From Oxalobacteraceae bacterium (lineage in GTDB: Bacteria > Pseudomonadota > Gammaproteobacteria > Burkholderiales > Burkholderiaceae_D), in assembly GCA_027490725.1 (NCBI GenBank), contig JAIXXN010000062.1:3007-67006 (forward strand): a DNA stretch of 64,000 bases. Reading direction: 5' to 3'. The notes under the pieces are model-generated. The model did no database searches. It was not told the origin of the DNA and saw nothing but the letters and a program-made list of their open reading frames with translations. Positions within the stretch are counted from its first letter, which is position 1; every line of letters starts with the position of its first letter. Shown in pieces: positions 19,276 through 28,098 of the stretch. A program made the position numbers and the translations under genes.

Positions 19276-22200
19276 ATGACTTCGATCGTTAATTTATTTA
19301 CAACAGACCAGATTGCCAGCCTCACTACGCTGCAAATGGGTCTGCTGACGACCGAAGATATGAGCGTGCTCAGCTCGGAACAGCTCGCGGTACTCAACAC
19401 CGCGCAGGTGCGCGCCCTGAATACCCTGCAACTGAACGCCCTGACGGTCGACGCTCTGAGCGGGCTGAGCACTACGAATATTCCCGCCATGTCGACCCTG
19501 CAGGTGGCGGCACTGCGCAGCGACCTGTTCAGCGCACTCAGCACCGACCAGCTGGTTGCCCTGAGTACCCGCGAAATGGCGGCGCTCACCACCCACCAGC
19601 TCAATCTGCTGAACACCACCCAGATGGCGGCGCTGGAAACGGTGGATCTGCGCGCCCTGACGACCTTGCAACTGGCCGCCTTGGGCTCCGATCAGGCAGC
19701 CAGTCTGACCACCGACCAGCTGGGCATCCTCGCGTCCCAGCAATTGCGCGCTTTTAATACCAGCGCCATCCAGGCATTTAGCACCGATCAGATCGTCTCG
19801 CTCAGCACGGCCAATCTGGCGCAACTGACCAGCACCCAGCTCAACGTCCTGACGGGCGACCAGATCAATTCGATCAGAACCGAGCAGATCGCCGGCCTGA
19901 GTGCCCCCCAGGTTGCCAGCCTCAGCACCGACCTGCTGGCCACCCTGAGCAGCGACCAGAGCGGCGCACTGGAAAGCCGCGACCTGATCGGCCTGAACAG
20001 CGCACAAATCCGGGCCTTCGGCGCCACCCAGCTGGCCGGGCTGAATACCGAACAGATGCGCGCGCTGCGTAGCCAGGCGATTGCCGCCCTCAGCACCGAC
20101 CAGTTACCCCTGTTCAGCACCGACCAGTTCAATGCCCTGAGCAGTCTGGCGGCCCTGAATTCGGCCCAGATGGGCGCGCTCAATACGGATCAGCTGAACG
20201 CGCTGACCACCCGCACCATCACCAGTCTGGCCAGCAGCCAGCTGGCGGCGCTGAACAGCGATCAGGTGGCCGCTTTTAATACCGATCAGGTGATTGCCCT
20301 GTCGACCCAGCAGTTCGCCAGCCTCGCTACCACCATGCTGGCGGCACTGGTCTCGGACCAGATGCTGGCCATTGAAACGCGCGATATCGCCGTGCTGAGC
20401 ACCGGCCAGATCCGCGTGCTGAGCTCCGACCAGCTGGTGGTACTCAGTACCGAACAGGTGGCCGCCATCAGCAGCAGCGATACCGGCGCCCTGCTGGGTG
20501 AACAATTGGCCAGTCTGAGCACCGACCAGATCAACGCACTGCGCACCCTGAGTCCGCTCAACTCGGCACAAATCCAGGCCCTCACCACCGCTCAGGTCGT
20601 GAACTTGCAGAGCCGTACCATCATCGCGCTGAGCAGCCAGCAACTCGGCGCCCTGACGGGCGAACAGTTGCAATCGCTGAGCACCGACCAGATCATCTGG
20701 CTGACGGCCAGCCAGGTCGCCAGCCTGAGCGGCGACACCCTGAATGCCCTCACCAGCGACCAGATCGAAGCCTTCGAAACGCGCGACATCGCCGCACTGC
20801 GTTCGGCCCAGATCAGCCGCCTGATCACGGAACAACTGGTGGTCTTGCTCACCGACCAGTTTGCAGCCCTCAACAGCAGTGCCATTGGCGCCCTCAGCAC
20901 CGACCAGATCAGCGTGCTGACCACCGACCAGTTGAACGCGCTGGCCTCGCTGGTCGCACTCTCCAGCAAACAGATCGGTTCGTTCACCACTGACCAGCTG
21001 CAATCGCTGTCGACCCGCAATCTGGCCACGCTGGCCAGTGCCCAGTTGCGCGTGCTCGGCTCCGACCAGATCCAGTCGCTCACCACCGACCAGATCGTCG
21101 CCCTGAACGGCGCCCAATTCCGTGGCCTCAATTCCGTGGCGATTGCCGCCCTCACCTCGGACCAGTTGCTGGCCATTGAAACTCGCGATATCGCCGCGCT
21201 CGACTCTAGCCAGGTCAACAAACTGCTGAGCGAACAGATCGCCGTGCTCAGCACCGAACAGATTGCTGCCCTCAGCTCGGCCGATACCGCAGCGCTGGTC
21301 AGTGACCAGATCGTTGCCCTGAACAGCGATCAGATCGATGCACTGCGCTACCTGACTGCGCTCAGCACGCGCCAGATCAAGGCGCTCACCACCGACCAGA
21401 TCAGTACCCTCACACTGCCCGATCTGACCTCGCTGACGACGCGCCAGTTTGCCTCCTTCACCAGCGACCAGTTGCAGGCGCTCAACACCGATCAGATCGT
21501 GGCGCTCAACACCGCCCAGATCGCTGCACTCAGCACCAGCGCGATCGCCTATCTGTCGACCGATGCGATTGCAGCGATCGAAACGCGCGACATCCGCGCC
21601 TTGCGCACCGCCCAGATCGCCCAGCTCAGCACCTTGCAACTGGGTGCGCTAGGTACGGCACAGCTGGCCGCCTTTACCACCGCCGAACTGCGCTCGCTGC
21701 TGAGCGACCAGCTGTCGGCCCTGAGTAGCGATCAGCTGGGCGCGTTTGCTTCGCTCAGCCCGATCTCGACGCGCCAGTTGGCGGGCCTGACGACGGCGCA
21801 GATTGCCGATCTGTCGACCAATAGCTTCCTGACCCTGCTGACCAGCCAGCTGGCCGCCTTTAATACCGATCAGGCCGCCGCCATCAGCAGCGATCAGGTC
21901 TACGCCATGACCACCGAGCAAGTGCGGGCCCTGAGTTCGGTGGCGATTGCCGCCCTCGGCACCGACCGGATTGCCGCCATGCGCAACATCGATCTGGTGT
22001 CGCTCACGTCGCGCCAGTTGTCGGCGCTGACCAGCAACCAGTTGCTCGCCCTGAGTACCCAGCAGCTGCGGGTGCTGCCGTCGGCAAATCTGGCGGCCCT
22101 GACACTGCGCCAGATTGCCGGCCTGAATAGTGAACAGATCGATGCGCTGGTCACGCTGGCCGCGCTGACCTCGCGCCAGCTGGCAGCCTTCAGCACCGAC

Positions 22201-28098: not shown

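Follow-up and report, generated by a model that had tools for sequence, protein, structure and literature searches.

The giant gene between fliR and flgL

The 64,000-nucleotide (nt) stretch of DNA analysed here, referred to as the window, is part of contig JAIXXN010000062.1 (positions 3,007 to 67,006, forward strand) of an Oxalobacteraceae bacterium (assembly GCA_027490725.1), and consists almost wholly of flagellar genes as identified with Pfam and NCBIfam. Between fliR and flgL lies the subject of this report, a giant gene whose protein is made of eight-residue repeats (octads) of the ALTTAQ family and ends in a self-processing module (SPM) homologous to that of FrpC. In some places the octads give way to a six-residue unit (hexad), which marks out a longer superrepeat. 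The protein is acidic, Cys-free and of low complexity. The gene and its parts, all on the + strand, are as follows.

19276..28098, +, giant ALTTAQ-repeat / SPM gene; 2,940 amino acids (aa), 305.6 kDa, pI 4.36, 0 Cys, 0.9% Lys
19276-27297, +, whole repeat array, from segmentation
19276..20136, +, N-terminal part of the array; ~35 octads, without a hexad over the first ~280 aa
20137..25362, +, 13 consecutive superrepeats of exactly 134 aa (402 nt), each a hexad (unit 0) and 16 octads
25363..25602, +, superrepeat cut down to 10 octads (units 7-16), with no hexad and no units 1-6
25603..26406, +, two further superrepeats of exactly 134 aa, from segmentation
26407..27297, +, degenerate end of the array; a 131-aa superrepeat (one unit of 5 aa), then a hexad and 20 octads
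27310..27819, +, FrpC-type self-processing module (Pfam PF26745 SPM), from homology and an AlphaFold2 model
27820..28095, +, low-complexity C-terminal tail, candidate type I secretion signal, ending ...DWLRQPAQHGILAAK

As delimited mechanically, the open reading frame (ORF) of the giant gene runs from 19219 to 28098 on the + strand (2,959 codons). We place the start at the ATG at 19276, because the N-terminus MTSIVxxF[ST]TDQI and a GGGAGA Shine-Dalgarno sequence are conserved in the orthologs. The protein has no signal peptide and no N-terminal domain, its repeats beginning at residue 9, directly after the initiator region, and the exact protein is absent from a collection of 15 billion sequences. 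Long ORFs also occur on the minus strand across the repeat region (19294-27651), e.g. 24223-26463 (746 aa) and 20104-21639 (511 aa); in all likelihood they only shadow the GC-rich, periodic coding strand and are not genes.

Repeat architecture and predicted fold

Autocorrelation of the protein gives a peak of 0.30 identity at a lag of 8 residues against a background of 0.10, and sharp peaks at 134, 268, 402, 536 and 670 aa with values of 0.384 to 0.297. Segmentation by dynamic programming, with an iteratively refined octad profile, resolves the array into 318 octads with the consensus L-[ST]-T-D-Q-[IL]-A-A and 17 hexads (L-x-[ST]-L-A-x). Thirteen consecutive hexads, at residues 306, 440 and so on to 1914, are spaced by exactly 134 residues, and the later ones follow at 2128 (+214), 2262 (+134), 2396 (+134) and 2527 (+131), the +214 interval being a full superrepeat plus the 10-octad copy. 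At the level of whole units, identity at lag 17 is 0.458, compared with 0.352 ± 0.009 in 2000 unit shuffles (z = 11.3). Strong T-T-D-Q octads stand at units 2, 6, 9, 12 and 16 of the superrepeat, and Gln is missing from units 0 (the hexad), 3, 8, 10 (I-E-x-x-D-I-A-A) and 14. Of the 318 octads, 254 have L at position 0, 239 have S/T/N at position 1 and 272 have I/L/V at position 5; position 2 is occupied by T/S in 238 and by Pro in just 11.

A first-pass annotation of this DNA had described repeats of 8 residues nested in superrepeats of 134 residues (402 nt), each with 16 octads and one hexad in a fixed place, and both periods as well as the fixed hexad are borne out by the autocorrelation and the segmentation. 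The span it gave to the array, 19300-27300, is essentially that of the segmentation. It was also right that the copies are diverged and not identical, as superrepeats share 43% of their residues and 56% of their nucleotides. The shortened copy of 10 octads that it reported is real; the interval of 25198-25438 proposed for it is the matching one from E-marker to E-marker. The roughly 20 acidic E-x-x-D markers come down to 13 when the strict pattern [ILMFV]-E-x-x-D is counted. The intermediate ~27-aa level of the hierarchy, the Pfam family of the octad, the FrpC-type module and the flagellar setting, all described in this report, did not figure in that annotation.

The octads match the Pfam family ALTTAQ_rpt (PF20080) with 1429 bits over 97 stretches, the gathering score being 26.4 bits. 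Profile searching of 1.84 billion representatives at E ≤ 1e-3 yields 4,534 clusters, of which 543 remain at E ≤ 1e-30; the longest protein has 6,292 aa, and the 134-aa period was present in none of the 104 other family members analysed. Relatives of the giant gene were collected in a scan of genome contigs with one genome per species, which gave 79 loci with the C-terminal domain; a protein homolog search gave only proteins of ≤ 473 aa, and the full-length relatives came from the contig scan. In all 33 loci with a fliR and/or flgL neighbour the top long lag is 134 (or 267/268). Represented among these flagellar-locus orthologs are Duganella, Rugamonas, Massilia, Janthinobacterium and Pseudoduganella, along with related metagenome-assembled genomes (MAGs) of the Oxalobacteraceae; an Oxalobacteraceae MAG stands nearest to the window (FlgL 97% identical). 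Across the 31 orthologs that were segmented, 134 is the commonest hexad spacing or tied for it; the 214 irregularity is among the commonest spacings in most of them, and 131 occurs in at least 13. The length is nearly fixed, at 2,944-2,963 aa, in 11 of the listed orthologs.

The array had also been called old and selected, and comparison with four closer species upholds this. Each of the 13 superrepeats in the window has its own positional ortholog in these species, with 55-78% identity on the diagonal vs 35% off it, and there are no indels over 1,742 gapless codons while 35% of residues have changed. The core L and Q are 81-90% identical and octad positions 1, 3 and 6 about 50%. The combination of zero indels and fast divergence around a conserved core therefore indicates that register and length are held, and that the variable positions turn over fast. 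Compared with the closest relative (L002), the repeat body (20137-25362) has a nonsynonymous rate (dN) of 0.276, a synonymous rate (dS) of 0.84 and a dN/dS of 0.33, and the adjacent flgL (28287-29549) a dN of 0.016 and a dS of 0.42. Nonsynonymous change is thus about 17 times faster in the repeat body than in flgL, and dS is doubled as well, possibly through codon usage, recombination or gene conversion. A further relative was seen on a 62-kb JGI metagenome contig (L001), where a fragment (P0096) is 89% identical to the C-terminal region of the window protein in the same flgL-flgK-flgJ-flgI-flgH context; the fragmented gene calls of this contig suggest a frameshift-rich assembly.

An AlphaFold2 model of two superrepeats has a mean predicted local distance difference test score (pLDDT) of 93.5 and a predicted template modelling score (pTM) of 0.82. 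DSSP assigns to it one helix of 5-6 residues and a linker of 2-3 residues for each of the 32 octads, with no strands, and the hexad is modelled as a 3-residue helical turn. The modelled helices begin at octad position 2, which makes position 1 (S/T/N) the N-cap and puts Q at N3. The superrepeat profile matches HeliScrew4 (PDB 9ZEM) with E = 3e-25 over 108 residues. This designed protein is the first crystallised '8-mer alpha-helical screw', of a class in which the core is apolar, the N-caps are S/T/D/N and a turn takes 2.5-4.0 units (bioRxiv 10.64898/2025.12.04.691947). The helix-initiating Pro at N1 that is frequent in designed screws is not a feature of the giant protein. Both structural proposals of the first-pass annotation, a solenoid of very short helices and S/T-x-x-Q as a helix N-capping box, agree with the model and the first also with the profile match, and we regard the helical short-repeat solenoid, as a claim by itself, as very probable.

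It is extremely unlikely that the array is instead LRR-like (leucine-rich repeat), a beta-solenoid or intrinsically disordered. Such a reading could draw on the low-complexity composition, on a hit to LRR_EndoS marginally over its threshold (28.5 vs 27.9 bits) and on the weaker matches of the same superrepeat profile to LRR proteins in the PDB (E = 1e-12 to 1e-5). The LRR matches, however, follow from the Leu spacing, which has a 24-aa (3-octad) period, and the far stronger match is to the alpha-helical crystal structure 9ZEM, with HeliScrew4 showing an alpha-helical circular dichroism (CD) spectrum (bioRxiv 10.64898/2025.12.04.691947). The confidently modelled helices, the capping-box pattern and residue couplings at i/i+4-5 (see below) all fit helices, and with a marginal LRR_EndoS score and a strandless model the LRR fold was rejected.

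Between the octad and the superrepeat there is an intermediate period. In both the 'DQ' octads and the Q-less units the k=5 harmonic of the 17-unit block prevails, the spectral peak of the whole array lies at 3.40 octads (~27 aa, normalised power 68), and the unit autocorrelation has secondary maxima at 3, 7, 10, 14, 20, 24 and 27 units, the integers nearest multiples of 3.4. Paralogs in the same genomes have super-periods of 56, 80, 136, 137, 217, 297 and 360 aa; despite these differences their 'DQ' spectra peak at 3.37-3.41 octads, and their blocks of 56, 80, 136 and 217 aa amount to 7/2, 10/3, 17/5 and 27/8 units per turn. From 34 orthologous proteins, 332 segments of two superrepeats (effective number of sequences, Neff, 219) were taken for mean-field direct-coupling analysis; separations of 25-29 aa account for 22 of its 150 strongest couplings, vs ~5 expected, and the best mean coupling scores fall at 24-29 aa once the trivial separations (134, 4 and 5) are set aside. 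Couplings at i/i+4-5 in the same analysis fit helices. We read the ~27-residue period as a probable turn of the solenoid, with the superrepeat of 17 units making five turns. The value of 3.40 units per turn, inferred from sequence statistics, falls inside the HeliScrew class range of 2.5-4.0.

Tandem arrays commonly expand by multi-unit blocks, and the 134-aa superrepeat could accordingly be a fossil of the duplication unit without structural meaning, its hexad a neutral 2-residue deletion that was copied along. The paralogs, which have other block sizes and irregularities of +1 or 0 instead of -2, are in keeping with this, as are the 40-, 48- and 128-aa blocks of other ALTTAQ proteins. We nevertheless think it unlikely. 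Neither the 3.4-unit harmonic nor the covariation at 25-29 aa follows from duplication history alone, block sizes close to integer multiples of ~27 aa have been reached convergently in several independent paralog lineages, and the hexad and its spacing have been kept through the indel-free divergence described above. As for the hexad, its proposed role as a 'phase-correcting stutter' is not established: it is strictly kept in the orthogroup, yet paralogs with 136-, 137- and 217-aa periods have no hexad.

The C-terminal module, export and the flagellar setting

The self-processing module matches the FrpC structures 6SJW/6SJX in an hmmsearch of the PDB (E = 7e-56) and is homologous to FrpC residues 415-591; BLASTP against the FrpC module gives 44% identity (E = 1e-43), and the AlphaFold2 model agrees with 6SJW/6SJX at TM 0.81-0.82. 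In FrpC the side chain of Asp414 attacks its own carbonyl at the Asp414-Pro415 bond to form an anhydride, and D414, D478 and D579 hold a transient fifth Ca2+ (PMC7078468). Four EF-hand-like Ca2+ sites are kept in the giant protein, where DLDGNG, DRNNDGQINDGSE, DSNHDGLVDLQD and DGNADGLSQSEE align with the FrpC sites D419/D421/D423, D462-E474, D499-D511 and D521-E532. D579 is conserved, and W451, G477, G491, the Pro and the beta1 strand are also kept. At the junction, where FrpC has the scissile Asp414-Pro415, there is a Ser-Pro (S at 27310-27312, P at 27313-27315), and the residue before the Pro is S or T in 71/71 related loci, never Asp. FrpC D478 is replaced by Thr, at a column where the aligned relatives carry S or T (consensus FGSST). 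Because of these replacements the canonical clip-and-link chemistry is excluded, and the module would be either a Ca2+-triggered, non-catalytic folding nucleus or switch, or the site of a different chemistry.

A Ser/Thr-Pro module that is still catalytic might cleave and possibly cross-link, for instance through an N-to-O acyl shift to an ester intermediate, and would then release or covalently anchor the 2,690-aa rod after export. The strict retention of a nucleophile-capable residue before the Pro in all 71 loci would be unexpected for a dead site, and the four structural Ca2+ sites and the other conserved elements listed above point the same way. The published mechanism, however, needs the Asp414 carboxylate and a fifth Ca2+ at D414, D478 and D579 (PMC7078468); both D414 and D478 are replaced here, and no experimental precedent was found in the literature searched. 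We therefore hold catalysis to be possible but doubtful.

The tail behind the module (~90 residues) has low pLDDT and two predicted helices. Its ending, ...LR...G[IF]LAAK (...LRLKALQ...GFLAAK in paralogs), is common to the giant protein and to paralogs linked to a type I secretion system (T1SS). In 22 paralog loci the gene is followed by a C39-type ATP-binding cassette (ABC) gene, 72-76% identical across distant taxa, usually together with a membrane fusion protein (MFP) gene. Short ALTTAQ-SPM proteins of other taxa adjoin ABC and MFP genes, with an outer membrane efflux protein (OEP) gene in one locus. At least seven genomes carry both a C39-ABC paralog locus and the flagellar-locus gene. From the missing N-terminal signal, the tail shared with T1SS-linked paralogs and this co-occurrence, we infer that the giant protein is exported in trans by the C39-ABC/MFP type I system.

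A gene for a protein with tetratricopeptide repeats (TPR) and a family 41 glycosyltransferase domain (GT41) recurs ~1-7 kb downstream of ALTTAQ-SPM genes, with 35-57% identity across the loci matched (L030, L033, L036, L043, L044, L048, L050, L066, L068, L069, L075, L082 and L083); tblastn found none in the window. Since this gene recurs beside ALTTAQ-SPM genes and a C39-ABC/MFP exporter, the S/T-rich octads may be glycosylated.

The elements that flank the giant gene are the following.

18349..19191, +, fliR (Pfam, NCBIfam), last of fliM-fliN-fliO-fliP-(fliQ)-fliR, immediately upstream
19224..19255, +, conserved promoter-like block with an 8-bp inverted repeat, TTCCATGA / TCATGGAA
28096..28262, +, 3' region of the giant gene, with tandem units and a bidirectional terminator
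28287..29549, -, flgL (Pfam, NCBIfam), convergent, followed by flgK, flgJ, flgI and flgH

Upstream and on the same strand as the giant gene are fliD, two fliK-like genes, ycgR, fliF, fliG, fliI, fliJ, fliM, fliN, fliO, fliP, (fliQ) and fliR, and further downstream are motB and flhB. The gap from the fliR stop (19191) to the giant gene start is 84 nt. Within it, the block at 19224-19255 is kept across 14 orthologous loci of several genera and the remaining spacer is not; a sigma-70-like match, TTTCCA-17-TATCAT, overlaps its inverted repeat, which could be an operator, a promoter or a hairpin in the 5' untranslated region, and no Rfam family was found there. Two other promoter types were considered for the same spacer and rejected, sigma-28 (TAAA-N15-GCCGATAA) for a poor fit by eye and sigma-54 (GG-N10-GC) as the GG reads GA in six orthologs. 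Directly after the stop, at 28096-28176, ~10 tandem TAGGCC(C)/TAGGCCGCAGGCT units fold as one long hairpin (minimum free energy of the 181-nt 3' region -128.8 kcal/mol, z = -7.8), and a 13-mer of these units has no other occurrence in the window. They are followed by a bidirectional intrinsic terminator at 28226-28262 that is common to the giant gene and the convergent flgL.

A flagellar locus of the alphaproteobacterium Falsiroseomonas tokyonensis has, immediately behind flbT, flagellin and flaF, a gene for a 429-aa DUF1217-ALTTAQ-DUF1217 protein (L081, 10001-11290). With this fusion, ALTTAQ repeats occur beside flagellar genes in a second, independent case.

The setting raises the question of whether the giant protein is itself a flagellar component, a substrate of the flagellar type III system that would pass N-terminus first through the channel and be incorporated into the flagellum or fixed to it, e.g. 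as a sheath, spacer or ruler-like fibre. Its gene lies on the same strand and so close behind fliR in a window almost wholly flagellar, this placement is kept in 33 loci of the five genera named above, the length is near-fixed in the 11 listed orthologs, and the unrelated DUF1217-ALTTAQ fusion is likewise encoded among flagellar genes, immediately behind flaF; tiny helices in a chain would, moreover, presumably unfold with ease to pass a narrow channel. Pfam and NCBIfam, however, find no flagellar axial or type III secretion substrate domains (Flg_bb_rod, Flagellin_N/C, FlgK/FliD) in the giant protein, its C-terminal module and tail are common to paralogs linked to type I secretion and not to flagella, and family members in other taxa adjoin ABC/MFP/OEP genes. 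We consider this role improbable.

Some other features of the window are recorded here for completeness. FliD (325-3006) is unusually long at 893 aa, with its FliD_C match spread over residues 461-878, and the two separate FliK-like genes (3823-5418 and 12672-14348) encode 531 and 558 aa, both with a Flg_hook domain. No Pfam hit was obtained for the ORFs 55462-58464 (-), 44072-45469 (+), 45857-48058 (+) and 3067-3765 (-), and the three other than 45857-48058 were also scanned with NCBIfam and gave no hit. At 44-48 kb the opposite-strand ORFs 44186-45532 (-) and 45794-47914 (-), beside flhB, are probably the real genes and are flhF/flhA-like by position only. The 1000-aa ORF 55462-58464 (-), which lies beside an RluC-type pseudouridine synthase, may be a shadow ORF.

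Interpretation and comparison with known systems

On balance we favour, with some reserve, the view that the giant gene encodes a secreted, Ca2+-folded, rigid helical-screw fibre that is placed with flagellar genes and probably co-expressed with them. In such a fibre each octad would form one alpha-helix of 5-6 residues, capped by the S/T/N at position 1 and the Q at N3, with L and I/L making the core. The helices would wind into a continuous alpha-helical 'screw' with ~3.4 octads (~27 residues) per superhelical turn. As 17 units would make five whole turns, no block shorter than the 134-aa superrepeat would come round to the same side of the rod again, and the array could for this reason have grown by, and kept, blocks of 134 aa. 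The ~335 units would make ~98 turns and a rod of the order of 90-100 nm, if a rise of ~0.9-1 nm per turn is assumed. Export would most likely proceed C-terminus first through the C39-ABC/MFP system in trans, and the exported protein would fold extracellularly once Ca2+ binds. The conserved position of the gene between fliR and flgL and its own conserved promoter-like element suggest that it is expressed along with the flagella, and the role of the fibre would probably be that of a rigid surface spacer or adhesin-like fibre.

Several observations weigh against a secreted screw fibre of this kind. The AlphaFold2 alignment had 7 rows only, each a separate, non-overlapping stretch of two superrepeats from the same protein. 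Foldseek against the PDB gave neither 9ZEM nor 7QLR among the 50 matches listed, so that the equivalence with HeliScrew is one of sequence profile only; its best matches were mesothelin, designed armadillo and PUF proteins, all with TM ≤ 0.34. Sequence statistics and an assumed rise are the basis for the handedness, for the rod length and for the figure of 3.4 units per turn, and the 40-, 48- and 128-aa super-periods of other ALTTAQ proteins do not fit 3.4 units per turn, so this pitch is not universal in the family. The module is without Asp414 and Asp478, and the GG.G.D motif of the repeats-in-toxin (RTX) nonapeptide GGxGxDxUx is absent from the giant protein. No T1SS gene was found in the 64-kb window (tblastn) or within 10 kb of any flagellar-locus ortholog, and gene order is the sole link between the giant gene and flagella.

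A more daring proposal would have a dedicated, flagellum-associated, rigid screw fibre with a fixed length of ~100 nm, made together with the export gate and, once exported, anchored covalently or tightly on or near the flagellum through a Ser/Thr-Pro module whose chemistry is not that of the aspartic anhydride. We regard this as a long shot; if true, bacterial flagella would gain a new accessory structure, autoprocessing would gain a new reaction, and the 'helical screw' fold would have its first natural giant with a function.

The significance of the gene is not confined to that proposal. A preprint of December 2025 terms the helical-screw fold structural 'dark matter', citing 7QLR as its only natural representative in the PDB, and raises the question of why nature uses it so rarely (bioRxiv 10.64898/2025.12.04.691947). 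The sequence signature of the helical screw spans ~2,680 residues of one natural protein here, and is also present in thousands of clusters, some with proteins of > 6,000 aa. Blocks of 17, 27, 10 or 7 units that make near-integer numbers of 3.4-unit turns may amount to a design rule, which we have not found described and which offers a natural test set for protein designers and repeat-protein evolutionists. The module is a conserved Ser/Thr-Pro variant of the 'NeissLock' protein-ligation module, and may be a non-catalytic Ca2+ switch or carry out a new reaction. Lastly, with its fixed place between fliR and flgL throughout a bacterial family, the gene for this 306-kDa protein is an unexplained member of a very well-studied cluster.

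No paper naming ALTTAQ or PF20080 turned up in the literature searched, nor anything relevant on PF26745, and a broader search (flagellar clusters, giant proteins, Oxalobacteraceae) gave nothing on this gene. Not found described were the link from the ALTTAQ repeat to the helical screw, the three-level 8 / ~27 / 134 organisation with whole-turn blocks, the universal Ser/Thr-Pro variant of the module in this family, and the conserved flagellar-locus orthogroup. The protein is not categorically new, because databases already contain the repeat family and the module, and a designed protein has recently set a precedent for the fold class. With PF20080 ALTTAQ_rpt it has the octad in common, and it is the 134-aa superrepeat, the 3.4-octad level and the flagellar-locus orthogroup that we did not find described.

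Among octad-based systems, the ice-nucleation proteins (INPs) are likewise long solenoids with a multi-level (8/16/48) periodic array. They differ in being beta-solenoids with the consensus AGYGSTxT, while the giant protein is predicted to be all-helical and has no sequence match to them. An ice-nucleation reading was rejected on the consensus (L-[ST]-T-D-Q-[IL]-A-A vs AGYGSTxT), on levels of 8 / ~27 / 134 and on the lack of any hit to an INP family in the giant protein; the first-pass annotation had rightly judged the consensus of these proteins to be unrelated. The alpha-solenoids of armadillo proteins and mesothelin, which gave the best Foldseek matches, resemble the modelled array as superhelices of short helices with ~3 helices per turn, but reach a TM of only 0.14-0.34, and their repeats of ~42 aa have much longer helices.

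The type I adhesins of the LapA, MpIBP and SiiE class are, like the giant protein, very large, acidic, Cys-free and repetitive with no Sec signal, and they share with it Ca2+-binding C-terminal elements and a C-terminal tail; relatives of the giant protein also adjoin ABC/MFP/OEP genes. These adhesins have Ig-like domains of ~100 aa in place of the 8-residue helices, and the giant protein is without an N-terminal retention module, an RTX block or ligand-binding domains. There are no T1SS genes near the giant gene, and a flagellar cluster is found instead. The clip-and-link RTX proteins FrpC, FrpA and ApxIVA have a homologous C-terminal domain with four Ca2+ sites and D579. The giant protein differs from them in its Ser-Pro junction, in the change of D478 to Thr in having no RTX nonapeptides after the module, and in carrying the module near the C-terminus, behind a giant repeat body.

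HeliScrew4 resembles the modelled array in its 8-residue repeat with one short helix in each, its S/T/D/N N-cap and its apolar core. It is a designed protein of 120 aa with Pro at N1, whereas the giant protein is natural, with a putative screw of ~2,680 aa, Thr at N1 and Q at N3, and adds to the shared octad a superimposed 17-unit superrepeat.

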